This document shows positions 1 to 37,379 of a stretch of DNA of 40,040 nucleotides, piece after piece; the stretch's first letter is position 1; the number at the start of each line of letters is the position of its first letter. The stretch is taken from the IMG/VR virus record IMGVR_UViG_2547132278_000009; one strand, given 5' to 3'. The notes under the pieces were generated by a model. It was given only the letters and a program-made list of their open reading frames with translations, made no database searches and had not been told where the DNA came from. The stretch is from a virus. Lineage: Duplodnaviria > Heunggongvirae > Uroviricota > Caudoviricetes. The translations under genes and the position numbers were made by a program.

Positions 1-2496
<2,496 letters not shown>

Positions 2497-2509
<13 letters not shown>

Positions 2510-3985: not shown

Positions 3986-4067
3986 TGTTTCATCCTTGAA
4001 ATAAGTAGGCGCTAACATCCTGTCAGCGCCACAATGATAGTAAATTAGTACTTACTTATCCAGATAC

Positions 4068-4403
4068 TTAAGCCTCAAATACTTGTCTGAATGTAGCAGT
4101 TAAGACACAGTACCCCTGATATCGCTTGACCGTATGACTGTCACATACAACTACAATCCGTTTTCCTCTTGGATTAACCCAATAGAACGACTCAACGCCT
4201 GCTCGCTCAGTCAGGAAGTCATCGATTGCATTAATTTCGTTGTATGATCTGGTAAAGGTTAACGACCATTCTTCTTTAATACGATTAAGACCTTGAGCCT
4301 GTCGCTGCTCGTAGTCATCACCAAAATTAAGTACCGTGACATTCGGTTTTACGCTCTTTTCAGATTCGTAATCTGGATACCAATTAAACGTTTGTCTTTC
4401 CAT
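4068..4403 (-). CDS. Minor tail protein M
   Basis: 111 aa; FGD.Y.QR...GLN and F.W..P motifs as in lambda gpM; conserved position. Confidence 0.75.
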   Translation of the reverse strand: MERQTFNWYPDYESEKSVKPNVTVLNFGDDYEQRQAQGLNRIKEEWSLTFTRSYNEINAIDDFLTERAGVESFYWVNPRGKRIVVVCDSHTVKRYQGYCVLTATFRQVFEA

Positions 4404-4445
4404 CTCACATCCTTGTGAGACTGCCCCGGTCGGGACAGTCGATAG

Positions 4446-9020: not shown

Positions 9021-9393
9021 ATATTTGCATCAGTTGCTCTTTGGCGTCAGGGTCTGCCTTATCCTGGCTTGGATCGTAGACTTTATCTGTTACGACAGGT
9101 CTTCCAATCCTGAGTTGCAAACCCTCCATGAACGCCTTCACAGCCTCGCCATCCGCCTGGGACGCACGAGCGACTTGTAAGTTGCGGACATCCTCTTCCG
9201 CACGCAGACGGTCTATATTGCGACTGAGCATCCAGAACATCGTGAGAGGAACGTTCAGTAGCTCTAATGGCGACACGGCGTAGTGAGCAACTACACGACT
9301 GAAATAGAATCCGAGATCTATTGAGACGGTCCTTGTCCCGGATTCATCGCGGGAAATTACTTTGCCCCTTCGCCAGCCGCTTTTTCGTTTTCT
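9007..9393 (-). CDS. T-like -1 frame extension of the tail assembly chaperone (G/GT pair)
   Basis: ORF 9007..9276 is in the -1 frame relative to G; by hand translation that frame stays open upstream to about 9393, overlapping the last ~12 codons of G. Confidence 0.5.
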   Translation of the reverse strand, partial: RKRKSGWRRGKVISRDESGTRTVSIDLGFYFSRVVAHYAVSPLELLNVPLTMFWMLSRNIDRLRAEEDVRNLQVARASQADGEAVKAFMEGLQLRIGRPVVTDKVYDPSQDKADPDAKEQLMQIFGRG

Positions 9394-9674
9394 TCATCAA
9401 TCACTTCCATAGCGAAGGTGAAGATCTGCTGGAGTTGCGGAACAGTCAGTTTTTCAAGAACTTCGTCAGGTACTGAAGGGATAACCTTACGAACCAGATC
9501 TGCATAAGCTGTCACTTGCTCAACAGGAGACATGTTCATGAGATCTTTGCCTTCCATCTGCTTGATGGAAACAAAGAGGCCGACGGTCATTTCAACGATG
9601 GGATATTCTTTGCCACCAAATTTGATGCTTTTTTTCGGCGGCAGAATGGAGTCGAGATCGAGTAATTTGGTCAT
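9357..9674 (-). CDS. Tail assembly chaperone G-like
   Basis: 105 aa, acidic C-terminus, immediately upstream of tape measure and overlapped by a -1 frame ORF. Confidence 0.65.
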   Translation of the reverse strand: MTKLLDLDSILPPKKSIKFGGKEYPIVEMTVGLFVSIKQMEGKDLMNMSPVEQVTAYADLVRKVIPSVPDEVLEKLTVPQLQQIFTFAMEVIDEENEKAAGEGAK

Positions 9675-9700
9675 GGTTTAAATCCTTTTAAACTCATACA

Positions 9701-9720
9701 GAGGCCCATCCATGGGCCTC
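9701..9720. other. Perfect stem-loop GAGGCCCAT-CC-ATGGGCCTC between major tail gene and chaperone gene (possible attenuator or RNA stability element)
   Basis: 9-bp inverted repeat read directly; no strong U-tract on either side. Confidence 0.4.
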
Positions 9721-9735
9721 TTGGGTTATCACAAT

Positions 9736-10482
9736 TTAGCTTGCGGCAGTTACAGAGACGGCTTTGGTCGCCTTCTTGGCACCGTCATTAGTTGTGAAGG
9801 TGATATTGGCTGAACCGACAGCTTTACCAGTTACCAGTCCGTTCTGATCTACGGTCGCTTTATCAGTCGCATCAGAGCTCCACACGCCAGTCTTATTGGT
9901 TGCATCGGCCGGGGTGAAGGTTGCGCTCAATTGAACTTTAGTGCCCACTTTTACGGTCGGTGAAGACGGGGTCAGCGTGACGCTCTCAACCGGCTTTGGG
10001 AGGCTCATTTTCCCCAACACGCCAGCGTCGTCCGGGTAAGCGGAAAACTCAACTGAGAACACGCGAACGTCGTCAGACTGGTAGGTCATGGTGAAGTTAC
10101 CCGCGGTTGCTGCTTTAGGGATGGTCAGAACATAATCCGTCGCATCCTGCGGGGTCAGCACCAACTCTTTCGCAACGTCGATCAGGTTCACTCCCTGCGC
10201 AGACGTGATGGTTACGGTATCTTCGCCAGAACTCAGCGTGGAACCTGGCATCAGATCGACCATGTTTTTCAACACGGATTCAGCCAGCGGCGCAGTAATG
10301 GTGATGTTGCGGCCCTGGATCAGCTCGGAGATCGTGGTCTGGCCCAGCTGGTCTACGGTCACTTTCAGCGTTTCGGTTGCGATTTCAACCTGAACACCAC
10401 CTTTGGTGTAACCCAAATCCACACCACCAAACGACACCTTACAGGCACCAAGTTTGATGTTTTTTACATGGGTATTAGACAT
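9736..10482 (-). CDS. Major tail protein V-like with C-terminal Ig-like (Big_2-type) domain
   Basis: ORF 9736..10518, likely start MSNTHVKN at 10482; C-terminal repeat VTLTPSSPTVKVGTKVQLSATFTPADATNKTGVWSSDATDKATVDQNGLVTG typical of Big_2 domains, as in lambda gpV. Confidence 0.75.
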   Translation of the reverse strand: MSNTHVKNIKLGACKVSFGGVDLGYTKGGVQVEIATETLKVTVDQLGQTTISELIQGRNITITAPLAESVLKNMVDLMPGSTLSSGEDTVTITSAQGVNLIDVAKELVLTPQDATDYVLTIPKAATAGNFTMTYQSDDVRVFSVEFSAYPDDAGVLGKMSLPKPVESVTLTPSSPTVKVGTKVQLSATFTPADATNKTGVWSSDATDKATVDQNGLVTGKAVGSANITFTTNDGAKKATKAVSVTAAS

Positions 10483-10556
10483 TGATGGAAAACTCCTTTT
10501 TCCGTTAATTCTACGCATTCATTGCGCTAATAGTAAGTATATACTTACCAATTGAG

Positions 10557-10913
10557 TTAATTCAATAAATAGCCAGCAAATTCAACAGGAATGCCTGCTT
10601 CTATTAATGCCCCATCATTTTTGGGATAAATGATTGGCATCGCCATCGGTCGCACCAGTCGAAAATAAACACCACCAGATTCCGTTTCCTCTACTGGAAA
10701 CATCTCAATGATTTTATTGGCTTTCTCAACCGTCGTAGTAATTGACGAACCACGCACAATTATTGTGAATGATTCGTGGTAAAAGCCCTGTAGCTCATGA
10801 TCGATGCTGATACCGGTATTTGGGTTAATAAGCAGGACGCCAGATTTCACATTGGCAGGCAAGTAGTGACAGAAAATGTCAGTCCCGACCGTGCCAATCT
10901 TTGCCTTCTGCAT
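10557..10913 (-). CDS. Tail component, U-like position (tail terminator candidate)
   Basis: Position between V and the head-tail joining genes; start chosen at internal MQKAKIG to avoid overlap with the upstream gene; no motif recognised. Confidence 0.4.
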   Translation of the reverse strand: MQKAKIGTVGTDIFCHYLPANVKSGVLLINPNTGISIDHELQGFYHESFTIIVRGSSITTTVEKANKIIEMFPVEETESGGVYFRLVRPMAMPIIYPKNDGALIEAGIPVEFAGYLLN

Positions 10914-10941
10914 CAAACTTGCAAACGCTTCAATAAACACA

Positions 10942-11415
10942 TTAACCTCTCGTAAAACCGGCTTTTCTGGCAGCCTCAAGAATCGCTTCTGAGAACTGCT
11001 TCTCGCTAATTTCCACCGCTCTTTCCAGAAAGTGTGGCCCAACACGAGGTTTAACACCGGCAATTGGTGGGTTTGTCACGTTCTTCATTCGAGAAAGATA
11101 ACCGAGTCGGTATTTACCCAGCTCCATGTACTTAGCATAGTCACCGACTTCTACGCCCGGATGCCCCTGACGTGGTTTTGCTCCAGACACAGAAAGCTCA
11201 ATGCGCAGCCCTGAATAACCTTCTTTAATCACCCTGGCAAAGATGGCTGTCTCCAGAGATCCGGTTTCCAGCGGGGCCATTGCACGGCTGAGACGCTCAA
11301 CCAAACGCGCCAGCTTTTCCATGTCCCGAATAAGATATCGCTTAAATGCTTTCTGGCTGTTGTTGAGTCGATTCCCCGCACGTTTGAACTGATGCGCATC
11401 GTATTTCAGACCCAT
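10942..11415 (-). CDS. Tail completion / head-tail joining protein (Z-like position)
   Basis: 157-aa ORF in the conserved slot; assignment by synteny only. Confidence 0.4.
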   Translation of the reverse strand: MGLKYDAHQFKRAGNRLNNSQKAFKRYLIRDMEKLARLVERLSRAMAPLETGSLETAIFARVIKEGYSGLRIELSVSGAKPRQGHPGVEVGDYAKYMELGKYRLGYLSRMKNVTNPPIAGVKPRVGPHFLERAVEISEKQFSEAILEAARKAGFTRG

Positions 11416-11750
11416 ATATTCGCCCCCACTTCAAGATGCCCTGGTCTTCCTCGTAGCCCCCAGCGGCGATGAACACTGGACACCTTTAATTTTTGACCTT
11501 CAAGGATCAGTACATCATCAAGTTGTACAGCCGCTTCCAAAGGGACAACTAACACAGCATCAAACAGTTCCAGGCTCGCCTTACCACGACTACCAGAGCT
11601 ATCAGCACGAACTGACGATTTCTCATTACTCTGTTCGAACTTAACCACGCCGACATTCGTCTTCCTGACGAATTGTAATTGCGCCTCACCGTAAACGTTC
11701 TTTGCGCCAAAGCGGTAGATCGCAATTTCTGTTTGCCATGAAATATTCAT
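11406..11750 (-). CDS. Head-tail connector candidate
   Basis: ORF 11406..11846; likely start MNISWQ at 11750 preceded by GGGAGAG Shine-Dalgarno; synteny only. Confidence 0.4.
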   Translation of the reverse strand: MNISWQTEIAIYRFGAKNVYGEAQLQFVRKTNVGVVKFEQSNEKSSVRADSSGSRGKASLELFDAVLVVPLEAAVQLDDVLILEGQKLKVSSVHRRWGLRGRPGHLEVGANIWV

Positions 11751-11829
11751 GCTCTCTCCCTGTTGTTGTCGGTCGCTCTCATTACTGGCCAAAAACCCTT
11801 TAGACCAAAAGTAAATAATGCGACTGGCG

Positions 11830-12663
11830 TTACGCACGGCGAACAATCATACGGTTGTTGATGTAACTGACCAGCAAGCGCCAGGTACTACGAGCCACAT
11901 GCACGTTTGCAGCTTTACCGGTACGGTACATGTTGGTTGTTTCACCGATGGACTCTGACAAAATGCCATCCTCTCGTGCTGCGGCTACATCATTGCCATT
12001 TGCGATCTCACACGCTTCGTTGACAACGGCAAGCATCAACGCTTCTTTGAAGTAGTCAGGGAACTCTTCAAACTTCTCCTGCGTCATCTTTTCCCAATCG
12101 ACTAAATCATGCCGGTACGCTCCATCTGCTCCCCACGGAATGTCATACACATTCAGCATATTTTGAGGGCGATCGTATCGGTCAAAGTCGATACGTAGAA
12201 TTTTGCGGATTGAGAACGGTAAAGTTTTAATTCGTCTGGTAGCCTCAATGAGACGCTTGCGCATTAAGCCTTCACCATCCGACAGCAAAGTGTCCCCATT
12301 CAGCATATCGATCGCCTGCATTTGAGCATCAGCGACAGTTGCAAACGACTGTTCTGGTATCGACAGTTCAAAACTATTCAGCAGAACATACATTTGCCGC
12401 TCTTCATGCGTCAGACCCGATGCAACCGCCTTCACAATGACGTACCGCAGATCGCGTTCTTTCTCAGAGAGCTGGTTATATTCAGCCGACACGACAACCG
12501 GAATCGACATTTGACCGCTGGTAATTTCTAGCGGCTCGCCATCAACGAGAATAGCCCCGGTGCTGTCCTTTACTGTGTAGGTAGCAGATTCGATATCCAG
12601 CACGTTGAAGGCAAATGAAAGGGAAACAGCTTCACCGCTACGATACGAGTCGATCTGCGCCAT
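11830..12663 (-). CDS. Hypothetical structural protein (277 aa)
   Basis: Long ORF within the head/tail joining block; start codon overlaps stop of upstream gene. Confidence 0.45.
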   Translation of the reverse strand: MAQIDSYRSGEAVSLSFAFNVLDIESATYTVKDSTGAILVDGEPLEITSGQMSIPVVVSAEYNQLSEKERDLRYVIVKAVASGLTHEERQMYVLLNSFELSIPEQSFATVADAQMQAIDMLNGDTLLSDGEGLMRKRLIEATRRIKTLPFSIRKILRIDFDRYDRPQNMLNVYDIPWGADGAYRHDLVDWEKMTQEKFEEFPDYFKEALMLAVVNEACEIANGNDVAAAREDGILSESIGETTNMYRTGKAANVHVARSTWRLLVSYINNRMIVRRA

Positions 12664-13097
12664 TACTCACCGCCTTGTGCTTTCAGGATGCCTTCAATCA
12701 TCTCGACAATTCCTTTCGCTTTGACACCAACCTGATTACCAATCACACGTAGACCGGCAATGCCTTCATTGTCTGCAATTGACTCCAACTCTTCTCGTGT
12801 GAAAGTCTGGATCTGTTTGGCCGGTTCATCGGGTGTCCCACGTTTCATTGGCACAATGTCAGGTGCTGCTGGCTCGGTAATCAGGTCTGCGGTCAACTCG
12901 CCACGATCACTGTATGCGGCAGACGGAGAAACATTTTTGCCCTCGACTGTTGATGCTCGCATTGAGGCACAAATCCTTTGCTGATCGATAAAAGGCAACT
13001 CCGCTACGGACACCCCGTTCTCGAACTGAACGCCGCACAACATTCCCGAATAACCGGAAAATTGCGGTTCTAATAAAACAATTTTTGCTGGTTTCAT
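12663..13097 (-). CDS. Hypothetical structural protein (144 aa)
   Basis: ORF between decoration gene and the 277-aa gene; no motif recognised. Confidence 0.4.
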   Translation of the reverse strand: MKPAKIVLLEPQFSGYSGMLCGVQFENGVSVAELPFIDQQRICASMRASTVEGKNVSPSAAYSDRGELTADLITEPAAPDIVPMKRGTPDEPAKQIQTFTREELESIADNEGIAGLRVIGNQVGVKAKGIVEMIEGILKAQGGE

Positions 13098-13141
13098 AAC
13101 GCATTCTCTCTACATGGGCGGCTTTCGCCGCCCAATATTGA

Positions 13142-14062
13142 TTATTCCTGTGCAGCAGTGACTTCTACGGTCGCTGTCGCTTTGTGGCTACCATCTTGGG
13201 TAGTAACCTCGATTGTGGCAGTACCAGCCGCAACACCAGTTACAACACCGGTTTCGCTGTCAACCGTTGCAAACTCGGTATTTTTAGATTCCCAAGTAAC
13301 GGTTTTATTTGTGGCTCCTGCCGGCTCGACATTTGCTGTCAGCTGAACAGTTTTGTTTGCCTCAACGGTTGTGCTATTTGGGTCGATTTCGACGCCGGTA
13401 ACAGCCACAACAGGCGCAGTTACTTCCACCGTTGCAGTTGCCTTTTTGCTACCATCTTGGGAAACGATCTCAATCGTCGCAGTGCCAACTTCTACACCAG
13501 TTACGTTCCCGCTCTGGTCTACCGTTGCCTTATCTTCATTTTTGGAAGACCAGGTAACAGCCTTATTCGTCGCATTTGACGGCTGAACATTCGCTTTCAG
13601 ACTGACTGATTTTCCTTTCTCAACAGAGGTTGAGTCTGGCGTTACCGTTACGGATTGAACGGCTACCGGATTTACGGTGACTTCCACTGAAGCGGAAAGC
13701 TGGGTTTCCTGATCAGTTGCAGTAATTTTTACTTTGCCTGGGGCTACGCCAGTTACTAATCCAGTGCCGTTAACGGTTGCAATTTGGTCATTGGCTGACT
13801 TCCAGGTGAATGAACTGGCACTCTTACCCATACTAATACCTGCACTAAGTTGAACAGTTTTCCCAACCAAAACTGATGGTGAAGCCGGAGTTATGTTTAC
13901 GGATTGGGAGAAGGGAACCGCCTGCAAACAAGCAGATAGCTGACTTTGTTGCCGCTCGGTTAAAGGTTCATCGGAGATAGAATTGGTAAATCCGGCGCGG
14001 CACATATGCCCCGTAAAATCCGAAAATGCCTCTTCCGTAATCTTCATCTTTTGTTCTGGCAT
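13142..14062 (-). CDS. Ig-like (Big_2) triple-repeat protein, candidate capsid decoration protein
   Basis: 306 aa with three tandem ~80-aa repeats of the form VxVTPxSxxVxxGKxVxLxAxVxPxxATNKxVTWxSxNxxxATVDxxGxVTGV...TATIxV; immediately downstream of the major capsid gene. Confidence 0.6.
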   Translation of the reverse strand: MPEQKMKITEEAFSDFTGHMCRAGFTNSISDEPLTERQQSQLSACLQAVPFSQSVNITPASPSVLVGKTVQLSAGISMGKSASSFTWKSANDQIATVNGTGLVTGVAPGKVKITATDQETQLSASVEVTVNPVAVQSVTVTPDSTSVEKGKSVSLKANVQPSNATNKAVTWSSKNEDKATVDQSGNVTGVEVGTATIEIVSQDGSKKATATVEVTAPVVAVTGVEIDPNSTTVEANKTVQLTANVEPAGATNKTVTWESKNTEFATVDSETGVVTGVAAGTATIEVTTQDGSHKATATVEVTAAQE

Positions 14063-14074
14063 TTCTTGCTCCTA

Positions 14075-14106
14075 CAAAAAGGGTGGGCGTATAGCCCACC
14101 CTTTAA
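14075..14106 (-). terminator. Rho-independent terminator/attenuator downstream of major capsid gene
   Basis: Minus-strand hairpin GGGTGGGC-TATAC-GCCCACCC followed by TTTTTG, then the RBS of the next gene. Confidence 0.6.
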
Positions 14107-14135
14107 CATAGATAACTACTTATCTACTATACTGA

Positions 14136-15011
14136 TTAAATTTTTACATTGGTCAGTGCAGCGATAGCCTTATCGTGCTTATTCGCCAGAGAGCAGTACC
14201 ACTTCACACGGGTACGTACTGCGTCTTTGTTCTGTACAGTACCAATGTTTTCAACAACGATACCTGCGTTGTCGCCGCCATACAGACCAGTAACGCCGTT
14301 CTCTTCTGACAGATGCAGGCAGTAGATGCTTGCTTTGCCAGAATCGGTCGGGATGAAGTCGTTGATGATGAACGGAACGCCGTTATGACACAGCATCGGA
14401 CGACCGAAGTTCTCCATCATGATTTCAGACGGACCTACGTTTACTGTACGCAGCAGCGCACGGTAAGCACGCAGGTGCTCTGAACGCATCATGATGCAGT
14501 CAGCACCAAGATCTTTCACCGCATCGACCAGTTCGTCGAACATAGAGAAAGTCATAGATGCACCGGCGATATCGATCTTCTGATCTGCGTGCATCAGGCG
14601 TGGAATGCCGTCAAACGCCTTGTTGTTGGAGCTGGAGTCACCCAAAATCAGGTTGCGACGGAACGCACGAGCCAGACCTTTAACTTTCTGACGAACCTGA
14701 ATAGCCAACTGGTTGTTGGTGTCGGCCATAGTGGTCGCCAGGAATTTATCAACGTCTACGTCACCAGCCAGAATACGCAGTTTCGCAACGCATTCTTCGA
14801 AGGTTGCTGCACCTTCAGGGATGGTGTCGTTAACGTCGATGAAGGTAGCTTCACTCAGCGTTTTTTCACGGTTGTACAGATATGCCTTTGAATTAATTTT
14901 CATAAAAGGCAGGATGGCAAACAGGTCATCGCGATCGATGATAGTTTCGATCACACCCTGTTCAAGTTCGTTGTTAGACAGCTTTTCAGCTTCTTCACGC
15001 AGTAATGGCAT
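14136..15011 (-). CDS. Major capsid protein (candidate)
   Basis: 291-aa ORF following the scaffold gene and followed by a terminator; assignment by gene order and size. Confidence 0.55.
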   Translation of the reverse strand: MPLLREEAEKLSNNELEQGVIETIIDRDDLFAILPFMKINSKAYLYNREKTLSEATFIDVNDTIPEGAATFEECVAKLRILAGDVDVDKFLATTMADTNNQLAIQVRQKVKGLARAFRRNLILGDSSSNNKAFDGIPRLMHADQKIDIAGASMTFSMFDELVDAVKDLGADCIMMRSEHLRAYRALLRTVNVGPSEIMMENFGRPMLCHNGVPFIINDFIPTDSGKASIYCLHLSEENGVTGLYGGDNAGIVVENIGTVQNKDAVRTRVKWYCSLANKHDKAIAALTNVKI

Positions 15012-15036
15012 CTATCAATTCCCTTTGATTTAGATG

Positions 15037-15924
15037 TTACTTAAGTCCAATTTTCCCCAGACCGGAGGCCAACTTATCCATAGTCGACTTGTTCTTCGGT
15101 TGGGATATTGTGTAGGTCGATTTGGAATGTGAGCCTACACCCTGCTTGGCTTCGCTACGCATCAATGCGTCAGCTTCCGGATCTGCCCGCACAATGCGTT
15201 CAATCGCGGATTCAAACGGCAACGGCTTACCTTCACCGTCAACCAGAACAGCTCGTTCTTTATGACCTGCCGGTTTGTCATAACCCACTACGCTACCGTC
15301 TTCACCCACTTCAAAATGAGAACCGTAGATCACGCGGGCTTTTGCCGGGGTCATCAGAACTTTGTCACGTAGGAAGAGAGAGTTACTGAAGGAAGCGCCC
15401 ACGGTCATCTCGACTAATTGAGATTTCAGTGATGCGTTTTCACTTTCCAGTGCTGCATAACGTTCGTCACGCTGTGCCAGCTCTGCCTGGTGTGCTTCGA
15501 TCATCTGTTTTTTAACAGCATCGAACTCACCACGACGCTCCAGTTCAGCTTGCTCCGCCTCACGACGTGCATTTTCTGCGGCCTGTTCAGCTTCTAAAAG
15601 CTGGCGAGCACGAGCCGGATCGATATCACCGTACTGAGCAAGCTGATCGGCCAATGTGCGCTCTTTCTCTTTGCGCTTCATGTTCTCCTTCAGCAGTTCA
15701 GCACCAGCTTTCTTGGTTTTACGAAGTTCGGCCAGTAACTCTTCCTGAGTCATGCCAGCGTATTCGTCATCGCCCTTCGGCTGCTCTTTTTGTTCACCCT
15801 GTTTGTCAGGATCTTGTGTACTCTGCTCATTATCAGCAGCTACACCGCCAGCGCCTCCACGCTCATGCGCTTCAGCGACATCCATCAGACCACGACGGGC
15901 CAAAAGCATTTGCCACAGATTCAT
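15037..15924 (-). CDS. Capsid scaffolding protein (candidate)
   Basis: 295 aa, highly charged and helical (EAEQAAENARREAEQAELERR), between portal and capsid genes. Confidence 0.55.
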   Translation of the reverse strand: MNLWQMLLARRGLMDVAEAHERGGAGGVAADNEQSTQDPDKQGEQKEQPKGDDEYAGMTQEELLAELRKTKKAGAELLKENMKRKEKERTLADQLAQYGDIDPARARQLLEAEQAAENARREAEQAELERRGEFDAVKKQMIEAHQAELAQRDERYAALESENASLKSQLVEMTVGASFSNSLFLRDKVLMTPAKARVIYGSHFEVGEDGSVVGYDKPAGHKERAVLVDGEGKPLPFESAIERIVRADPEADALMRSEAKQGVGSHSKSTYTISQPKNKSTMDKLASGLGKIGLK

Positions 15925-15945
15925 AAAAATTCCTTTTGTTACTTA

Positions 15946-17520
15946 TCACTCGTTCTCTTGAGTAGATGAGTCCCCATTCCCTCGGGGTTGATCTTGCCCG
16001 CTTTCTTGGGCTGCACCACGATCATAAGTAAGTGATGACTTATTTTCAAGGGTATTTAGATCATTTTTTGGAGGAAAATTCAAGAGATCTTTATCAAATT
16101 CCTCTTTCATCGCCTCAGTAATGTTCGGGAAAATCTTCTCAATAAGCATTTCCATCTGGTGACGACGTACAGAGTCCGGTGCCTGAAGTAATGACAGTTT
16201 CTCGGCAACAGAAAATTCATCAGTAAGGCCACGAATATCGAAACTTTCTGGATACGCAATTAAAGAGTGGTCTTCGTCCAGATCTACCCCCATCCATTTC
16301 GCAACCAGTAGCATGATTTGGCGTTCAGCCCTTTCCAGACGCTCTGCTTTTGTGACAAGCAAGCTATTTACACGCTGGAAGTCATACATTTTTGCGGCAC
16401 CAGATGAGTTATCGATTCCCTGTGCGTTGTCCTGCTTCGTTCGCTCACCAGCTACACCAACTGAATGGTAGATTTCGTTAATCACCGTCTTAATCGTAGT
16501 GATGATCATCTGAGCTTGTTTCGGGTCTGGTGACAGATAAAACGGCTGGTTTCCACCTTCAGAATCGTAGGTGAAGACTCGCTTTGTGCCCATTTCAAGC
16601 ACTTTAGTGTGGTTTTCATCACCAGGTAAAAGCGACTGTACTGGTATAGCCAACTGGCTAAATGTCTGATCCTGAATAATGGCATCAAGGTTTGACAGAT
16701 AGTTTGCAACCGCACGATCAAGATAAGCGATATCATCGATCAACGATGGGCTGAAATACGGTGATTCACTTTCTCCAATACAATCAACAGGAAACACAGG
16801 AACTACGCCGAGATTATGCTCACCGCTATCCTCTAAAATAACTTTTGCCTGACGGCGACCTGCTCCACCAGCGCCCTTCTTCACTTCCTCACGGAACAGA
16901 TACCACTCGTTTTGTGTCCACAGACGATAACGTTGGTATTCCTGACCTGTAGAAGTAAAAGGATCTGCGTCATCGCGAGCGACTTCCACAATTAACGCCC
17001 ATAACATATTCCCGTCGTCGTCCCATGCCACATCCAGCATTTGCTGAGGTGAAATCCAGTAGGCGTAGGCGCGAGCATCTTTCTTTTTCTCGTCAGCTAC
17101 TGACTCAACATCACCACTCATCGTGCTATCGACAACAACCCATATGCGACCGTAAATAGACGACTGCAAATCAATAGCGGCCATAAATGAGTCAATAGAG
17201 GCATTCTGGCGAGTCGCACGTTTCCAGAAATTGCGGATCTGCTCTGGTGCCTCTTCGATATTTCTATGAATGTCTTCTTTAAAGAGATATTTGTTGATGA
17301 GGTTTACCACCTCACGAGTGTGGTTGAAGCGATAAGCACGTTCAACTCGCTCCTTAAACTCCTGATCTCCCTCTTTAAAGTAACGAAAGATATTGTCTGT
17401 AAACCAACCACGCCCGCCAGCGTAAGTGCTGGCGAGGAAGTCCCAATGTTCTTTTTTCTTTTCGTATTCCGGGTGGCGTCGCGCCACCAGATCCTTAATT
17501 TGTTTGTCGTTCAATTCCAT
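15946..17520 (-). CDS. Portal protein (candidate)
   Basis: 524-aa ORF immediately downstream of terminase large subunit; size and position typical. Confidence 0.6.
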   Translation of the reverse strand: MELNDKQIKDLVARRHPEYEKKKEHWDFLASTYAGGRGWFTDNIFRYFKEGDQEFKERVERAYRFNHTREVVNLINKYLFKEDIHRNIEEAPEQIRNFWKRATRQNASIDSFMAAIDLQSSIYGRIWVVVDSTMSGDVESVADEKKKDARAYAYWISPQQMLDVAWDDDGNMLWALIVEVARDDADPFTSTGQEYQRYRLWTQNEWYLFREEVKKGAGGAGRRQAKVILEDSGEHNLGVVPVFPVDCIGESESPYFSPSLIDDIAYLDRAVANYLSNLDAIIQDQTFSQLAIPVQSLLPGDENHTKVLEMGTKRVFTYDSEGGNQPFYLSPDPKQAQMIITTIKTVINEIYHSVGVAGERTKQDNAQGIDNSSGAAKMYDFQRVNSLLVTKAERLERAERQIMLLVAKWMGVDLDEDHSLIAYPESFDIRGLTDEFSVAEKLSLLQAPDSVRRHQMEMLIEKIFPNITEAMKEEFDKDLLNFPPKNDLNTLENKSSLTYDRGAAQESGQDQPRGNGDSSTQENE

Positions 17521-17546
17521 TTGAATAACCTTAGATAATTACTTAC

Positions 17547-18803
17547 CTATCGAGAACCACCAAGAATAACACGGTTTTTGACTGGATACCTACGATGTAC
17601 TGGATAGCCCAATGCGTCTGCACTATGCTCAATGCCACCTGTCTTATCCATATCTCGTGTTCCAGGCTTGTAGATGACTTTTTCCAGTGAATCAATCAAA
17701 TGCTTGCACTTCGGATCGATATACAGCCGGATATCTCCAGATGCGGTCATCAGCATTCGGTTAACAGCATTAACACGATCCGCAATTGGCGGGTGCTTTT
17801 TCGAATAATCGACACGTAAGAATCCCTTCTCTTTGAATATGTCTACGTCAGACTCCCCACGAGCATGTTGGCGATAAGCACCTGCCGGATCTGGAAATAC
17901 CGTTACCTGTGATTTCCAGCGCCAGAAGCGTCTCTCAAGCTCATCACAAACTTCTGCCGTGTTAGAGGAAAAGAGCACCAATTCATCAATTGCCCATAGC
18001 TCACCATTTGGCTGAGGTTGCAAAATTACTGAAGACATCGGGTCAATGTTGAAGTCCTGCCCTACCCATATAGGCAACCGAGGGTTGAACTGAAGCGGTT
18101 TTACATGCACGTTACGATCGAACGGGTAGTAAACGCGCCCGGACATGTTCTCAAAGCTGGCCAGGTACTCCTGAGCGAACGATTTGGGGTCCATATCGTT
18201 CTTAGCAGCTTCAATTTCCGCCGTAGGTACAAACGGAGAATCGGCAGTTACAAACTGCCAGCTCTTCCACTGTCCCTTTCTTTGCAGCTCTACGTTCTGG
18301 CCTATAGTCCACAGTTTGTGAAATTCCGAGAAGCCTTTTGGCGTACCAATGATCAGTGCACCGCCGCGTGTCGATGAAAGAGTAGGTCGTAACACCTTGT
18401 ACCAGGTGTCAGCCTTCATATCCTGAAATTCATCAAGCACTACAAAATGCAACGCTACGCCGCGCAGAGTGTCAGGCTTATCAGCACCTTTGAGGGCGAT
18501 CTCCGAACCGTTCTTCAACACGATTGTCATCGTGGTGTCGTTCTTTTTCCTAACCCACTTACGAGGCAGAACTTCCTGTAGATCGTCCCACAAAATCTGG
18601 CGAGCCATCTGGTAAGTAGGAGCGACATACCAGACCCTTTGCTTTTTTTCCTTTGCCGCCGCACGAATAATAGTGGAGATCGACAACCGGGATTTTCCCC
18701 AGCGTCGACCAGCACAAACAACTTTAAATCGATGCGGAGACTGGAAGACTTTCATCTGTCCAGAATGCAGTTGCACAAGACTGAGCGAGGACGGGATTGC
18801 CAT
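17547..18803 (-). CDS. Terminase large subunit
   Basis: 418 aa; Walker A CAGRRWGKS, Walker B VVLDEFQD, C-terminal nuclease-like region; start overlaps stop of the small subunit gene. Confidence 0.85.
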   Translation of the reverse strand: MAIPSSLSLVQLHSGQMKVFQSPHRFKVVCAGRRWGKSRLSISTIIRAAAKEKKQRVWYVAPTYQMARQILWDDLQEVLPRKWVRKKNDTTMTIVLKNGSEIALKGADKPDTLRGVALHFVVLDEFQDMKADTWYKVLRPTLSSTRGGALIIGTPKGFSEFHKLWTIGQNVELQRKGQWKSWQFVTADSPFVPTAEIEAAKNDMDPKSFAQEYLASFENMSGRVYYPFDRNVHVKPLQFNPRLPIWVGQDFNIDPMSSVILQPQPNGELWAIDELVLFSSNTAEVCDELERRFWRWKSQVTVFPDPAGAYRQHARGESDVDIFKEKGFLRVDYSKKHPPIADRVNAVNRMLMTASGDIRLYIDPKCKHLIDSLEKVIYKPGTRDMDKTGGIEHSADALGYPVHRRYPVKNRVILGGSR

Positions 18804-30764: not shown

Positions 30765-30783
30765 TTAAACATGTTGTTTTCTG
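30765..30783 (-). promoter_or_regulatory. Palindromic operator copy (GAAAACAA-C-ATGTTTAA) upstream of the acidic 109-aa gene
   Basis: Read directly; part of duplicated promoter module. Confidence 0.5.
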
Positions 30784-30892
30784 AATTGCGTAAACAATAC
30801 CAGTAAGAAAACGGCCACAAAGTATATCGTTACGGTGCTGCGCTGCCCGGAGGTTAATAGCGACAAAAGCCACCGTGCTGGTGGCCTCACTC

Positions 30893-31111
30893 TTAATCTT
30901 CGTCGCCCGGGAACTCGCTGTGTACCGCGTCCACCAGCTCCCGCTTTTCATCTTCACTCAGCAGGTGCCAGATATCCTTCCCTTTGGGCGATTCCCCTTC
31001 TGCCGGGACGAACGACCACAACTTGCGGTACAACTCCGGCCCCACTGCATCCAGACACTCAGCCAGGGATTCCACGCCCCACACCTCAACCGTCACAGGC
31101 ATCTTAATCAT
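30893..31111 (-). CDS. Hypothetical small acidic protein (72 aa)
   Basis: ORF with GAGGATGAAGAG RBS-like leader; acidic C-terminus EFPGDED. Confidence 0.45.
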   Translation of the reverse strand: MIKMPVTVEVWGVESLAECLDAVGPELYRKLWSFVPAEGESPKGKDIWHLLSEDEKRELVDAVHSEFPGDED

Positions 31112-31142
31112 CTCTTCATCCTCACTTCGTTTATATAACGTC

Positions 31143-31159
31143 TAAACATGTTGTTTACT
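31143..31159 (-). promoter_or_regulatory. Palindromic operator copy upstream of the 72-aa gene
   Basis: TAAACATGTTGTTTACT with the same flanking TTAATAACACCAACAAG block as the site at 28613. Confidence 0.45.
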
Positions 31160-31491
31160 TGTTGGTGTTATTAACGCAATAAGACAAAGGCGAAAAAGGA
31201 TTTTATTCCGGTGAATGTGGTTTTGGCAGTGAGTTTTCAGGTTCAGTACCGAGTACACTTTTTACATTATTCTGATTTAGTGGCCGAAAGTGGCTGGTGG
31301 CAGAGTAATCCTCTCCCCAAAAACCTACTGAAATCGATTGTGCCCCGTTGGCTGTCTGGCACAATTACGCTGTAGCTGGGCATTCAGAGGGAATCCAGCG
31401 GTAAGCAAGCCCGCCTACGTGAGCGCCTCTCTTCTTCCCGCACATTACAGGTGGGTAGCCGCAACTCTCCCTCTCGCTATACCGGTACGCC

Positions 31492-31622
31492 GCCGTTCCT
31501 GAACCGGCATCGAGCCTTTTCCCGAAATCCACACAGGCAACTCGACCGTTTCCCTGAAAATCCCCAGCCGTTCCCCGAAGGCAACCCAGCCGTTTCTGTA
31601 GCGGGATGCAACCTTTTCCCTG
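31492..31622. repeat. Iteron-like direct repeat array B (6 copies of G/A-CCGTTTCC-type units at about 22-bp spacing)
   Basis: Units begin at about 31492, 31514, 31545, 31567, 31589, 31610; several followed by GAAA. Confidence 0.65.
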
Positions 31623-31699
31623 TATGGACCGAAGACTGACCGTAGGGGTGTTACGGGGGGATAAAATCAGGAGTTGAATAAATACGAAAAAGGAGGCGA

Positions 31700-32600
31700 C
31701 ACCCCTCCTTCCCTCCCCACTTATACATACCTGGCTTCTTCGCTATACATGTTGTGTTTTATCTGTCTCAACCTCTCTATAGGCGTTAATGCTCACTCCT
31801 TCCAGAATGTTCTATACGGCGACTATTTCTGTTGGTGAATTGGGTGTGTTGTTTTCTCTGTCGGTGTATGTGGTTTCGTTCGTTTTGCGGTGGTTCTTCT
31901 ATGGGGTGTTCTCGTCGTTTTGGTGATTGTTCTTCTCCGTGTATGGAGTAATGGCAGGTGGGCGATTGCTTTCGTTATTGTGTTTGAGTTGTTTGTCTGG
32001 AGTGTGTGAAAGGCTTTTGTAGTTATTCGTGTATTGGGTAATGGCGTTTCCCGTGATTGTTATGTTTCGTGTCTTTTGGGATTGAGAGAAACCTTGCGGT
32101 TATAGGCTTCGTTGGGTTTTCAGTGATTCTGGTGTTTCTTCGCTGTTTGGGGAATGGCGTGTCGTGGGTATTGCGCGTATGAATGTTTTCGGATTGCCTG
32201 TGAAAGTTAGGTTGGCTGTCCGGTAGCCTGGGGAGAAGAGGTGGGTCTTTTCGGTAGCCTGCCATAAAGAGGTTGGTTGTTTTTGGGAATGGCATTTGTG
32301 TTATTTAGTTGTTTTGTTATGCCTGAAAATAAGTTGTTTATATGGTTGTGTAACGCAACGGGAGCGATTTTGAGCGTGTGTTTTTGTTGGTAGTGTGTTG
32401 GGTCGTCTGTGGTGAAAATTGGACGCTGTGGCGCTGTCTGCTGCGTAGAATTACGGGTATAAGAAGTGATGTGTGAAAACGTCAATTTTTTAGACCAAAT
32501 CGGGTGAAAGCGTTGATGTTTCGTTGATCTGTTATTCAGTTGTTTTCTTGATTGTATAAACAACTATAACTTATTGATATTTAAGGATGTGATTGCGGGT
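31700..32600. other. About 0.9 kb ORF-free tract with extreme G+T richness on the plus strand
   Basis: Long runs of G/T-only words; recurring GG(G/T)AATGGC units near 31951, 32037, 32143, 32287; only low-complexity ORFs. Confidence 0.6.
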
Positions 32601-32682
32601 ATGGAAAGGGAGTAGTGGCGATCAACGGATTCTTATAGAAAAGAATCAAATTGTGACCGCCATTATCAATGAGTTGCAACCG

Positions 32683-33252
32683 TTAGTTGTTCAGATAAAC
32701 ATTTGGAACACGGACGTAGAAGTTCCTGTCGCCGGTAAGTTCCAGAGTAATGTTAATGTCATTACCATTGTCTAGTGTAGCCGTTGCTCTATAGAACTTA
32801 TCCGTCACCTTGTCCTCTATTGTCACCTTCATACATTTTGGTGCAGTCGAACCGTTATTCTCTTTCAGAATAGTTGTCACGAGAGGGCAGGCTGCTTCTT
32901 CAAGAGCAACCTCGTCCTTGTGTGGGATGCCGATGAAGATAATCCAAGCCAGCGACGCAACGATTATGATAAATGGCACTCTGCTGCCTTTTGTAATAGT
33001 CGCGCGCTTCCAGAGATAGACAGGCAGGAGGAATACCCCCCATAGAATTGAAGGTGGTTCACAGCCAGACTCCGATAGAGCCATTCTGTCAGCTACTAAC
33101 AAACCGATGGTAGTTACACCCCCAATTATAATAGCGTAATTGGTATACTCTTCCGGCGATACTCCAAAGAAGAAAGGCATGAACGCTAGAATCCACGCAT
33201 AAATGTTATTCAGAGGTTTTGTTTGTTGGTTCTGGGTTTCCATCACATCCAT
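32683..33252 (-). CDS. Membrane protein (about 3-4 predicted transmembrane helices plus C-terminal soluble domain)
   Basis: 189 aa; hydrophobic segments IYAWILAFMPFFFG, AIIIGGVTTIGLLV, ILWGVFLLPVYLW, FIIIVASLAWIIFIGI. Confidence 0.55.
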   Translation of the reverse strand: MDVMETQNQQTKPLNNIYAWILAFMPFFFGVSPEEYTNYAIIIGGVTTIGLLVADRMALSESGCEPPSILWGVFLLPVYLWKRATITKGSRVPFIIIVASLAWIIFIGIPHKDEVALEEAACPLVTTILKENNGSTAPKCMKVTIEDKVTDKFYRATATLDNGNDINITLELTGDRNFYVRVPNVYLNN

Positions 33253-33404
33253 TCCATCACATAAAAATCGCGTTTATATATTATCAATTTTCTCACTTGT
33301 ATAACCTAAATACGCATCCGTTTATCAATTCACCTTCCACAAACATCAGCTTTAGCTATGAAAAATAACAATCTCAAAGTGAAAACCATTATCATAGGAA
33401 ACGA

Positions 33405-33590
33405 TTAGATGAGATGGTCTAATTCATCATCTATCATTGCTTTAACACTTGAGTCATTAACCCCGTATTGATTTATGAACCGTTTCAGCTCCGGTGAAAA
33501 CTGAAGGTAGATATCGTGAGCGTTTTTCACTGTAGGTTCAACGCCACGCATTTCAAGCGCCTTTAGTAGATATGAGTCTTCTTTAAGCAT
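33405..33590 (-). CDS. Hypothetical small protein (61 aa)
   Basis: ORF downstream of the 102-aa gene, likely co-transcribed. Confidence 0.4.
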   Translation of the reverse strand: MLKEDSYLLKALEMRGVEPTVKNAHDIYLQFSPELKRFINQYGVNDSSVKAMIDDELDHLI

Positions 33591-33626
33591 AAATTCTCCG
33601 TTGTCTAGTATGAAGCGATTGCCGGA

Positions 33627-33935
33627 TTACCATTGCCAGCACTCTAGCCCTTCAACGACCGGTGCACCACAATCAAAATGTACAGAGTCAAAGCCTACAT
33701 CAAGTACTTTCTGAATGTTAGCAATCGCGCCTTCGGATATACCATATCGACGCAAGTCCTCTTTCCAGACATCATCCTGTAACCCGGCGTGGACAATACA
33801 ACCGCCGTCAATTTGTGAAACCCAATCCAGCTCATTGCTTGCGATCATGAATCGGCGAGCATCTTCCTCTGATGTATGAGATGAACTGATCAATGCCACC
33901 TGGTAGGCTTGGGTAATGTTCAACATTTCAACCAC
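33627..33935 (-). CDS. Hypothetical acidic protein (102 aa)
   Basis: ORF preceded by two operator copies; acidic composition. Confidence 0.5.
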   Translation of the reverse strand: MVEMLNITQAYQVALISSSHTSEEDARRFMIASNELDWVSQIDGGCIVHAGLQDDVWKEDLRRYGISEGAIANIQKVLDVGFDSVHFDCGAPVVEGLECWQW

Positions 33936-34087: not shown

Positions 34088-36121
34088 TTACTTAACCTGA
34101 TGGCCTGGTTTAGCACCGGCATCCGGGCTTAACAGGAAGATATCTTTCCCGCCGGGGCCAGCAGCCATCACCATGCCTTCAGAGATACCGAAGCGCATTT
34201 TACGCGGAGCCAGGTTAGCCACCATAATGGTGTGACGACCAATCAGTGCCTGTGGATCTGGATAAGCGGAACGGATGCCTGAGAAGACATTACGCTTTTC
34301 ACCACCGAGATCCAGCGTCAGGCGCAGCAGTTTGTCAGAACCTTCGACAAACTCCGCGTTTTCAATCAGCGCCACACGCAGGTCAACTTTGGCGAAGTCG
34401 TCAAAGGTGATGGTTTCCTGAATCGGGTCGTCAGCCAGTGGGCCAGTTACCGGTGCAGCTGTGGCTTTCACTTCTTCTTTGGATGCTTCCACCAGTGCTT
34501 CCACCTGTTTCATATCGATACGGTTATACAGTGCCTTGAACGGATTCACTTTATGGCCCAGCAGCGGTTGCTGGATACCATCCCAGGTCAGTTCTGTATT
34601 CAGGAATGCTTCTGCACGTTCAGTCAGTTTCGGCAGTACCGGTTTCAGGTACGTCATCAGCACGCGGAACAGGTTAATGCCCATAGAGCAAATCGCCTGC
34701 AGATCGGCATCGCGTCCTTCCTGCTTCGCCACCACCCACGGAGCCTGTTCATCGACATAGCGGTTAGCCAGATCAGCCAGCGCCATGATTTCACGAATCG
34801 CTTTACCAAATTCGCGGCTTTCCCATGCTTCACCAATCACTTCAGCGGCATCAGTAAAGGTTTTGTACAGTTGCGGGTCAGCCAGTTCGCCTGCCAGCAC
34901 ACCGTCAAAACGCTTATTGATAAAGCCCGCGTTACGGGACGCCAGATTCACCACTTTGTTCACGATATCGGCATTCACGCGCTGAACGAAATCCTCCAGG
35001 TTGAGATCGATATCATCAATGCGCGAAGAGAGTTTCGCAGTGTAGTAGTAACGCAGGCTGTCAGCGTCAAAATGATTCAGCCAGGTGCTGGCTTTAATAA
35101 AGGTGCCGCGAGACTTGGACATCTTCGCACCGTTCACCGTCACATAGCCATGAACAAACAGGTTGGTCGGCTTGCGGAAGTTGCTGCCTTCCAGCATGGC
35201 AGGCCAGAACAGGCTGTGGAAGTAAACGATATCTTTACCGATGAAGTGGTACAGCTCGGCGGTGGAGTCTTTCTTCCAGTATTCGTCGAAGCTGGTAGTG
35301 TCGCCGCGTTTGTCGCACAGATTCTTGAAGGAACCCATGTAGCCAATCGGTGCGTCCAGCCAGACGTAGAAATATTTGCCCGGTGCGTTCGGAATTTCAA
35401 AACCGAAGTACGGCGCATCGCGGGAGATATCCCACTGTTGCAGGCCAGATTCAAACCACTCCTGCATTTTGTTTGCCACCTGCTCCTGCAACGCACCGCT
35501 GCGGGTCCATGCCTGCAACATTTCGCTGAAAGAGGGCAGATCAAAGAAGAAGTGTTCGGAATCACGCATTACCGGCGTAGCACCAGAAACTACCGATTTC
35601 GGCTCGATCAGTTCAGTCGGGCTGTAAGTCGCGCCGCAGACTTCACAGTTATCGCCGTATTGATCTGGCGCTTTACATTTAGGACAGGTGCCTTTTACAA
35701 AACGGTCCGGCAGGAACATGCCTTTTTCCGGGTCGTACAACTGAGAGATAGTGCGGTTTTTAATAAAACCGTTCTCTTTCAGGCGAGTATAGATAAGCTC
35801 AGACAACTGACGGTTCTCTTCGCTGTGCGTCGAGTGATAGTTGTCATAGCTGATGTTAAAGCCTGCGAAATCAGTCTGATGTTCCTGACTCATTTCGCCA
35901 ATCATCTGCTCCGGTGTGATACCAAGCTGCTGTGCTTTCAGCATGATCGGCGTACCGTGGGCATCGTCGGCACAGATGAAATTAACCTCGTGGCCGCGCA
36001 TTCGCTGGTAACGAACCCAGACATCAGCCTGGATGTGCTCCAGCATATGGCCGAGGTGGATTGAGCCGTTAGCGTACGGCAGCGCGCACGTCACCAGAAT
36101 TTTCTTCGCGACTTGGGTCAT
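34088..36121 (-). CDS. metG: Methionyl-tRNA synthetase
   Basis: Near-identity to E. coli MetG as I recall it (start [36 protein letters not shown] motif present); ORF-track N-terminal extension discarded. Confidence 0.97.
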
Positions 36122-36278: not shown

Positions 36279-37379
36279 ATGAGCGAGTCCAAATCGCCGG
36301 ATGCCCTGAGAGCAATGGTAGCCGGTACGCTGGCTAATTTTCAGCACCCAACCCTGAAACACAACCTGACTACGCTTAAAGCGTTACACCATGTTGCGTT
36401 GATGGATGACACACTGCATGTCGAACTAATCATGCCTTTCGTGTGGAATAAGCCTTTTGAAGACCTGAAAGAGCAATGTAGTGGTGATCTGCTCCGTATC
36501 ACTGGCGCAAAGGCTATTGACTGGAAGCTGTCGTACAACATTGCCACGCTTAAGCGTGTCAAAAACCAACCAGGCATTAATGGCGTTAAGAACATTATCG
36601 CCGTCAGCTCAGGCAAGGGCGGCGTGGGTAAATCCTCCACGGCGGTAAACCTGGCACTGGCGTTGGCTGCTGAAGGTGCGAAAGTTGGTATTTTGGATGC
36701 CGATATCTATGGTCCATCAATTCCAACCATGCTGGGCGCGGAAAACCAACGTCCAACCTCACCTGACGGTACTCACATGGCACCTATCATGTCTCATGGC
36801 CTGGCAACCAACTCTATTGGTTATCTGGTCACCGACGACAATGCAATGGTGTGGCGTGGACCGATGGCCAGCAAGGCGCTGATGCAGATGTTGCAGGAAA
36901 CTCTATGGCCTGATCTGGACTATCTTGTTCTCGATATGCCGCCGGGCACTGGTGATATTCAGTTGACGCTGGCGCAGAACATTCCTGTAACTGGTGCTGT
37001 TGTGGTAACTACGCCGCAAGACATCGCGCTGATCGATGCGAAGAAAGGCATTGTGATGTTCGAAAAAGTCGAAGTGCCGGTACTGGGTATCGTCGAAAAC
37101 ATGAGTGTGCATATTTGCAGTAACTGCGGTCATCACGAGCCAATTTTCGGCACCGGTGGCGCAGAGAAACTGGCCGAGAAATACAACACGCAGTTGTTAG
37201 GCCAAATGCCACTTCATATCTCACTTCGTGAAGATCTGGATAACGGAACACCAACCGTTATTAGTCGTCCAGATAGCGAATTTACGGCTATTTATCGTGA
37301 CCTCGCAGATCGCGTTGCTGCCCAAATGTATTGGCAAGGTGAAGTAATACCTGGCGAAATCGCATTCCGCGCAGTGTGA
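36279..37379 (+). CDS. mrp: Mrp/ApbC iron-sulfur cluster carrier ATPase
   Basis: Near-identity to E. coli Mrp as I recall it (P-loop SGKGGVGKSS, CSNCGHHE motif); divergent from metG. Confidence 0.95.
   Translation: MSESKSPDALRAMVAGTLANFQHPTLKHNLTTLKALHHVALMDDTLHVELIMPFVWNKPFEDLKEQCSGDLLRITGAKAIDWKLSYNIATLKRVKNQPGINGVKNIIAVSSGKGGVGKSSTAVNLALALAAEGAKVGILDADIYGPSIPTMLGAENQRPTSPDGTHMAPIMSHGLATNSIGYLVTDDNAMVWRGPMASKALMQMLQETLWPDLDYLVLDMPPGTGDIQLTLAQNIPVTGAVVVTTPQDIALIDAKKGIVMFEKVEVPVLGIVENMSVHICSNCGHHEPIFGTGGAEKLAEKYNTQLLGQMPLHISLREDLDNGTPTVISRPDSEFTAIYRDLADRVAAQMYWQGEVIPGEIAFRAV

Follow-up and report, generated by a model that had tools for sequence, protein, structure and literature searches.

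The 40,040-nucleotide stretch of viral DNA analyzed here (IMG/VR record IMGVR_UViG_2547132278_000009, Caudoviricetes; hereafter the window) is part of an SSU5-like phage-plasmid of ~110 kb, an extrachromosomal element carrying metG and apbC. On its minus strand lies ORF189, an open reading frame (ORF) of 189 codons that is the subject of this study (Table 1). An earlier sequence-only reading had described an ORF of this length and position as a membrane protein with hydrophobic helices in its N-terminal part and a soluble C-terminal domain, encoded between a G+T tract and metG, and had suggested superinfection exclusion or abortive infection as its function. The ORF was confirmed, and its architecture was borne out by hydropathy, which revealed four hydrophobic segments followed by a hydrophilic, confidently folded region (residues 111-189). 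The location was right only in part: the tract is real and lies downstream, but ORF189 does not abut metG, since two small minus-strand ORFs intervene. ORF189 encodes an accessory (moron-type) inner-membrane protein of the phage-plasmid, for which we tentatively propose, from context only, a role in superinfection exclusion or envelope protection.

ORF189 is a genuine gene under purifying selection. A near-identical copy (99.5% identity) is found in the RefSeq plasmid pG749_2, where it is annotated as a hypothetical protein starting at Met4 (WP_061158061.1, 186 amino acids); the N-terminal MDVME is kept in all SSU5-type alleles of the gene. The protein is conserved over its full length, at 60-100% identity, on plasmids of Escherichia, Citrobacter, Salmonella and Klebsiella. 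Among IMG/VR phage-plasmid contigs, allele classes sharing ~83, 72 and 60-62% protein identity showed pairwise ratios of nonsynonymous to synonymous substitution rates (dN/dS) of 0.05-0.3, with dS of ~0.8-1 or saturated. These ratios, the 1,441 representative homologues recovered by profile search and the confident AlphaFold models (whole-protein AlphaFold2 model with a mean predicted local distance difference test score, pLDDT, of 83.7) are the reasons for considering the gene real. A spurious or decaying ORF would fit the mere “hypothetical protein” annotation and the truncated fragments of the gene present in databases. This explanation is so improbable that it can be set aside, being effectively refuted by the deep homologous family recovered in the profile search, the high-confidence fold and dN/dS values well under 1; full-length conservation across plasmids of four genera also speaks against it.

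Table 1. Positions in the window of ORF189, of the segments of its product and of adjacent features
Feature	Position	Strand	Description	Evidence
ORF189 coding sequence	32683..33252	minus	189 amino acids from Met1; stop codon 32683-32685	ORF list
Transmembrane segment 1 (TM1)	33160..33204	minus	residues 17-31, kink at Pro26; predicted direction cytoplasm to periplasm	hydropathy, AlphaFold, N-terminal domains of relatives
TM2	33091..33138	minus	residues 39-54, ending at Asp55	hydropathy, AlphaFold, family alignment
Helix 3 (H3) and basic loop	32980..33048	minus	H3, residues 69-81 (PVYLW); loop KRATITKGSR, residues 82-91	family loop statistics
TM4	32923..32979	minus	residues 92-110; predicted direction cytoplasm to periplasm; runs straight on into the C-terminal domain helix	hydropathy, AlphaFold helix 92-133
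C-terminal domain, predicted extracytoplasmic	32686..32922	minus	residues 111-189; helix packed on a four-stranded antiparallel sheet	domain model, lipoprotein copies
Replaceable two-gene cassette	32672..33626	minus	ORF61 and ORF189	blastn of the window against Cyrano, Cyrano annotation
AT-rich spacer upstream of ORF189	33253..33404	minus	152 nucleotides, GC content 0.35-0.37	
ORF61	33405..33590	minus	small acidic protein of 61 amino acids	PHROG 11467, unknown function
ORF102	33627..33935	minus	102 amino acids, DUF5983 C-terminal domain	Pfam, E 8.6e-11
Strand-skewed non-coding tract	31700..32600		directly downstream of ORF189 on its transcribed strand (minus), in a wider non-coding stretch (31143-32682)	

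An exchangeable slot on an SSU5-like phage-plasmid

The sequence-only reading had referred to prophage-encoded membrane proteins in accessory regions. The accessory status of the gene holds; the element, however, is an extrachromosomal phage-plasmid and not an integrated prophage. ORF189 was present in 83 of 5,426 complete Escherichia coli genomes, and all 84 places where it was found are on plasmids, most of them of ~100-115 kb and the largest of 252 kb. The 1-kb region around the gene matched 235 complete E. coli genomes, again exclusively on plasmids, with identities of up to 99.6% in plasmids of ~108-115 kb among the matches listed. Set against these 235 genomes carrying the adjacent flank, the 83 genomes with ORF189 amount to about a third of the related E. 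coli phage-plasmids. In PLSDB, the protein was detected on plasmids of Escherichia, Citrobacter, Klebsiella, Salmonella, Shigella and Raoultella. The window itself encodes the tail-tip protein J, the tape-measure protein, the capsid and the terminase (324-18803) together with ParB-type partition genes. A helicase and a series of small ORFs follow, and metG, apbC and an S24 peptidase come next. ORF189 is found among the small ORFs, far from the morphogenesis genes, and therefore falls in the accessory (plasmid) portion of the element.

The closest view of the slot came from Cyrano, an SSU5-like phage-plasmid of E. coli LF82 that produces virions (PMC9928086). Homology between the window and Cyrano stops at position 32671 and resumes at 33627, with flanks that are 96-97% identical. 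Between these boundaries, ORF61 and ORF189 are replaced in Cyrano by CYRAN_102, a soluble acidic protein of 244 amino acids. CYRAN_102 is listed as a moron, as its transcription in the LF82 lysogen is 6-fold above the local prophage background, for a criterion of at least 5-fold (PMC9928086). Expression of CYRAN_102 in a near-identical backbone indicates that the slot is transcriptionally active in the plasmid state. ORF189 is also missing from the sequenced phages CMS-2020a and PhiR41_1, and a tblastn search of 50,697 phage records returned no close copy. Its presence or absence between conserved flanks is one of the features by which morons are recognized. ORF189 is thus dispensable for the phage and occupies a swappable slot.

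Discrete ORF189 allele classes (100, 86, 82, 73 and 60-64% identity) are found inside a region that is itself variable, as the whole 29.4-33.4 kb interval is a mosaic of patches that are 97-100% or 55-85% identical between elements. The allele diversity is therefore attributed to recombination in the accessory region, not to an island of divergence confined to the gene. An imperfect 28-nucleotide direct repeat (71% identity) brackets ORF189, at 32641-32668 and 33367-33394, and its downstream copy lies at the point where homology to Cyrano stops; the repeat may mark a recombination boundary or have arisen by chance. Elsewhere in the same region, a 360-bp segment (30783-31142) containing a minus-strand ORF of 72 amino acids (30893-31111) is present in the window and in some IMG/VR phage-plasmids and absent from pG749_2 and Cyrano, and represents another small presence/absence cassette. 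Two full-length housekeeping genes are also carried by the phage-plasmid, metG (methionine-tRNA ligase, 34088-36121, minus strand) and apbC (36279-37379, plus strand). The metG-apbC pair is common to Cyrano and many E. coli phage-plasmids, and transcription of the apbC-like CYRAN_99 in the lysogen has been reported (PMC9928086).

The variable presence of the gene also bears on whether ORF189 serves the life cycle of the phage-plasmid itself at the membrane, by acting in lysis timing as an antiholin or holin-like protein, in DNA entry or in plasmid maintenance. We consider this unlikely. A T7-type holin family of Pfam (PF10746) gave a sub-threshold match to ORF189 (E 0.11), virulent jumbo phages carry homologues in their early-gene regions, and a Yersinia homologue is located among tail genes. 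However, the holin match reaches 12.6 bits for a gathering cutoff of 25.4, and the neighbours of ORF189 are small ORFs and metG, with no endolysin or spanin genes. Moreover, the gene is remote from the structural module, with small accessory ORFs around it, and is dispensed with by Cyrano, which produces virions, and by about two thirds of the related E. coli phage-plasmids.

The membrane module and the C-terminal domain

The hydrophobic segments of ORF189 (Kyte-Doolittle; residues 17-31, 39-54, 69-81 and 92-110) coincide with helices of the AlphaFold model, which were placed at residues 17-29 (kinked at Pro26 and built as 17-23 plus 25-29), 34-61, 69-87 (kinked at Pro77) and 92-133, the last one being continuous. 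Four strands follow, at residues 140-148, 153-160, 165-172 and 178-181. The protein likely adopts an N-in/C-out topology. The N-terminus would be cytoplasmic because relatives carry GYF_2 or zinc-ribbon domains ahead of TM1, while the basic loop KRATITKGSR directly before TM4 argues for a periplasmic C-terminal domain. A cleavable N-terminal signal peptide was also considered and rejected: a -3/-1 cleavage site of small residues is lacking, and the segment lines up with TM1 in relatives whose N-terminal domains are cytoplasmic.

Since an N-in/C-out layout demands an odd number of spans, we infer, also from the lengths and charges of the loops, that only TM1, TM2 and TM4 are true spans, and that helix 3 (PVYLWKR) is embedded in the membrane on the cytoplasmic side without crossing it. 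Averaged over 74 non-redundant relatives, the TM1-TM2 loop is short and net acidic (7.5 residues, with 0.27 Lys plus Arg and 0.88 Asp plus Glu). The loop before helix 3 has 14.3 residues (2.8 basic and 2.03 acidic), helix 3 itself 12.5 (0.28 and 0.03), and the loop after it 10.0 (3.6 and 0.43). TM1 and TM2 would accordingly be paired as a hairpin, the conserved D...G..P..W...PVYLWKR segment would lie at the cytoplasmic face of the membrane, and TM4 would carry the C-terminal domain into the periplasm. Three residues of the membrane module are near-invariant in the aligned relatives: Asp55 (148/149), Tyr79 (147/150) and Arg83 (149/152).

ORF189 consists of two separable modules, this N-terminal membrane module and a C-terminal domain of ~75 residues made of one helix and four strands. 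Some relatives keep the membrane module and exchange the C-terminal domain for DUF4352/FxLYD, Lcl_C, PD40 or HEAT. Conversely, in others a lipobox-containing lipoprotein signal peptide is joined to a single C-terminal domain or to a tandem of two. As these stand-alone and tandem copies are lipoproteins, they place the domain outside the cytoplasm elsewhere in the family, and the same location would apply to ORF189. The exchange of the domain for DUF4352, Lcl_C or PD40 in relatives likewise speaks for a periplasmic position.

When residues 112-189 were modelled alone (AlphaFold2, 66-sequence alignment), a pLDDT of 92.9 and a predicted template modelling score (pTM) of 0.80 were obtained. Cys140, at the start of the first strand (window positions 32833-32835), is invariant (144/144 relatives), and Cys122 is present in 98 of 150. 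A disulfide between the two is possible in ORF189. It would not by itself explain the conservation of Cys140, since the 47 relatives without Cys122, stand-alone lipoprotein forms among them, keep Cys140 as well. The domain also holds the motif ATLDNGND, whose N-G turn is near-invariant in the family. Foldseek searches with the whole-protein and domain models returned no neighbour in the PDB at E<0.1, and a profile search of PDB sequences found no relative. Structural matches in BFVD were to uncharacterised proteins of Serratia and Escherichia phages.

Relatives of ORF189, their genomic contexts and the adjacent features

ORF189 matched PHROG 12486, a family of unknown function, over its full length (residues 1-189 against positions 1-189 of a 189-position profile, E 1.1e-123). 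This was the sole matching library family, and all 46 diverse relatives tested also matched it. As this PHROG carries no functional annotation, membership says nothing about mechanism. Searches against Pfam and NCBIfam gave nothing above threshold for ORF189. An exhaustive profile search recovered the 1,441 homologues mentioned above at E<=1e-3, of which 442 at E<=1e-10, each representing a cluster at 50% identity. Members were identified in Verrucomicrobiota, Lentisphaerae, Frateuria, Pseudomonas, Citrobacter and Yersinia. With tblastn, relatives at 26-28% identity were found in the early-gene region of Erwinia and Dickeya jumbo phages, and a partial relative (41% identity over query residues 96-183) in an Enterococcus phage record. 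In two word-indexed searches covering 5.8 billion proteins, relatives bore only the names “hypothetical protein”, “Uncharacterised protein” or “DUF4339 domain-containing protein”, and literature searches on SSU5, superinfection exclusion and GYF_2 brought up nothing on ORF189. Judged from these searches, the family is large and real, and none of the libraries or source names assigns it a function.

A GYF_2 domain (PF14237, formerly DUF4339) precedes the membrane module in 20 of the 46 relatives, and zinc ribbons do so in others. Bacterial GYF_2/DUF4339 relatives align over ~90% of ORF189 with 34-45% identity (E 1e-20 to 1e-69). ORF189 itself, with an N-terminal tail of only 16 residues, gave no GYF_2 match at E<=1. 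The NCBIfam GltJ model matched 10 of the 46 relatives, most likely because of shared N-terminal architecture or domains.

We then considered the genes surrounding relatives in about a dozen contexts, across which no conserved neighbour gene was found. Short forms devoid of a cytoplasmic domain are mostly carried by mobile elements (phage-plasmids, a Yersinia prophage and jumbo phages), with the exception of one located beside ECF-sigma/FecR and PagP genes. Long forms bearing GYF_2 were chromosomal in all loci examined, some of them beside integrase or island genes. Individual relatives were observed in an island next to an integrase, by ECF-sigma/FecR and PagP genes at one locus and by ECF-sigma/FecR and a TonB-dependent receptor at another, by dynamin-like GTPases, and, in an ordinary chromosomal context, between MltA, a Zn-peptidase and OTCase. 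In Yersinia enterocolitica, a defective myovirus-like prophage of the chromosome carries a short-form homologue of 188 amino acids, with a tail-assembly-chaperone-like ORF on one side and baseplate genes on the other. At this Yersinia locus, the upstream sheath-like gene is truncated, next to a GmrSD/AAA_15 island in one strain and next to an integrase fragment in others.

These chromosomal relatives make it also possible, if no better than tentative, that ORF189 is a general envelope protein without an anti-phage role. It would then be a membrane-anchored periplasmic binding or scaffold module for a conserved envelope component, and the phage-plasmid copy a horizontally acquired short form that alters host envelope physiology or fitness, or nearly neutral cargo. 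The breadth of the family (1,441 clusters, several phyla), the fusion of relatives to cytoplasmic GYF_2 or Zn-ribbon adaptors, chromosomal neighbours including MltA, a Zn-peptidase, PagP and ECF-sigma/FecR, and a strongly conserved C-terminal domain with its invariant Cys140 and near-invariant N-G turn are all in line with such a protein. On the other hand, the E. coli copies are confined to phage-plasmids and never chromosomal, the gene occupies a replaceable accessory slot, its divergent allele classes are maintained under purifying selection, and it is also encountered on other mobile elements. According to the sequence-only reading, its proposal would be refuted by homology to a membrane protein with a housekeeping role. 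This is the case only by half: homologues with GYF_2 or zinc ribbons do exist in ordinary chromosomal contexts, such as that of MltA, the Zn-peptidase and OTCase. They weaken the exclusion reading without refuting it, as they are themselves uncharacterised.

Two other contexts are relevant to competition between bacteria. In Citrobacter amalonaticus, a GYF_2-bearing homologue is transcribed divergently from tssB/tssC at the edge of a type VI secretion system (T6SS) cluster; an EcsC-family gene and genes of an island come after it. In Klebsiella plasmids of 2.7 kb (one of 4.4 kb), a member of 260 amino acids is the main cargo besides rep (NZ_CP067386.1, 924-1706, minus strand); its N-terminal extension, located before TM1 on the predicted cytoplasmic side, looks J-domain-like by eye. 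Small polytopic inner-membrane proteins with a periplasmic domain are typical of immunity proteins. ORF189 could thus be an orphan immunity protein, carried by mobile elements against envelope-targeting interbacterial toxins such as T6SS effectors and pore-forming or periplasm-acting bacteriocins, and its architecture and both of these contexts would agree with this. We nevertheless hold it to be improbable: the T6SS-adjacent case is single, divergently transcribed and at the cluster edge, the small Klebsiella plasmid has no recognisable bacteriocin, and no cognate toxin gene is present near ORF189 in the window or in pG749_2. In addition, no Pfam immunity family matched even at E<=1, and none in NCBIfam.

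Closer to ORF189 itself, all SSU5-like loci examined have a homologue of ORF102 (41-100% identity) directly upstream of either ORF189 or the ORF61-ORF189 pair. ORF61 accompanies only the ORF189 allele of at least 98.9% identity (tblastn across loci), which is the group of at least 99% in the DNA searches, and the 60-83% alleles lack it and directly follow the DUF5983-type gene. ORF189 therefore functions without ORF61, which is not an obligate partner, and we rejected the idea that the two form a toxin/antitoxin or other two-component system. A sub-threshold Pfam match of ORF61 to the T7 gp5.9 RecBCD inhibitor (E 0.006, 16.9 bits for a cutoff of 24.5) covers residues 2-18 only.

The AT-rich spacer separating ORF61 from ORF189 is a possible promoter region. 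A repeated motif upstream of ORF189, AATTGATAA, was not significant, as two copies were reached in 10 of 100 shuffles. On the other side of the gene, the non-coding tract shows on the plus strand a GC skew of up to +0.50 and an AT skew down to -0.56. It contained no Rfam match and no tandem repeats, and no coding sequence is annotated there in the homologous RefSeq plasmid. Its conservation is 96% in Cyrano and partial in SSU5-like elements that are more distant. Transcription continuing from ORF189 into the tract, whose plus strand is rich in G+T, would yield an RNA rich in C+A and poor in G. Such a predicted RNA resembles a Rho-loading site.

Proposed function of ORF189 and comparison with known systems

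According to the proposed role in exclusion or envelope protection, ORF189 would be made from the resident plasmid prophage and would protect the lysogen by acting at the cell envelope. The likeliest mode would be superinfection exclusion, in which the periplasmic domain binds a conserved envelope component or the entry machinery and thereby thwarts the entry of phage DNA or some other attack on the envelope. The protein would not act via host killing. Of the two functions originally suggested, abortive infection is the less probable, since no effector or toxin module can be recognised. The exchangeable slot is accompanied in this respect by short-form relatives in mobile contexts (the small Klebsiella plasmid, the Yersinia defective prophage and the Erwinia, Dickeya and Serratia jumbo phages) and by the Citrobacter copy that borders a T6SS cluster and genomic island, which favour a protective role.

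Several observations weigh against this role. ORF189 showed no sequence, profile or fold similarity to known exclusion or defence proteins in any library used: no PADLOC family matched at E<=1, and neither a Sie or Abi family of Pfam nor an annotated PHROG did. Many homologues are chromosomal, with cytoplasmic adaptor domains and ordinary neighbourhoods, suggesting a general envelope function. The periplasmic domain is the best-conserved portion of the protein and is conserved across phyla, which fits a universal ligand or a conserved host target better than the recognition of variable phage proteins. As for the locus, lysogen transcription at the slot is shown only for the alternative occupant CYRAN_102, and since that protein is soluble and acidic, the slot is not dedicated to membrane proteins. 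Moreover, no sigma-70 consensus match of 9/12 or better was found on the minus strand of the AT-rich spacer, and no terminator was found downstream of ORF189 before a terminator-like minus-strand hairpin at 31713-31687, ~970 nucleotides away and past the strand-skewed tract.

A bolder proposal, which we regard as rather doubtful, is that ORF189 is the phage-borne short form of a widespread family named in none of the libraries searched, in which the conserved membrane module (Asp55, Tyr79, Arg83) is coupled to a hitherto unclassified periplasmic domain with an invariant cysteine. Mobile elements (phage-plasmids, small plasmids, prophages and jumbo phages) would use this short form for exclusion or immunity of a new kind at the envelope, by engaging a conserved envelope target and not a phage protein. 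Action as a dominant-negative decoy of a host homologue was judged unlikely, as no DNA-level homologue is found on E. coli chromosomes.

Enterobacteriaceae from clinical and livestock sources commonly contain SSU5-like phage-plasmids, in whose accessory slots traits affecting host fitness are carried. Should ORF189 prevent phage entry or shield the envelope, an unclassified family would be added to the exclusion and defence repertoire, and a first functional handle would be gained on a family of ~1,400 clusters for which Pfam, NCBIfam and PADLOC have no entry. Otherwise, it is simply another uncharacterised moron; as things stand, it would not surprise a phage biologist, and it opens no long-standing question. 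What is added here is the two-module anatomy, the predicted topology with an extracytoplasmic C-terminal domain, the size of an unannotated family and the clean boundaries of the cassette.

ORF189 can be compared with three groups of proteins. Bacterial GYF_2 and zinc-ribbon proteins, including those with the architecture of Myxococcus GltJ, share a homologous membrane module and C-terminal domain in the same predicted N-in/C-out layout; unlike them, ORF189 lacks the cytoplasmic domain entirely and has only its short N-terminal tail. With lambdoid-type morons, and with CYRAN_102 of E. coli LF82 in particular, ORF189 shares its variable presence and the same slot of a 96-97% identical backbone; the two proteins are unrelated, CYRAN_102 being soluble and acidic whereas ORF189 is a membrane protein. 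Finally, T4 Imm and Sp, P22 SieA, HK97 gp15 and lactococcal Sie2009 are small inner-membrane exclusion proteins, some with a periplasmic or extracellular domain. Such phage exclusion membrane proteins are products of dispensable genes that are active in the prophage or at an early stage of infection. The likeness of ORF189 to these proteins is one of functional analogy only.

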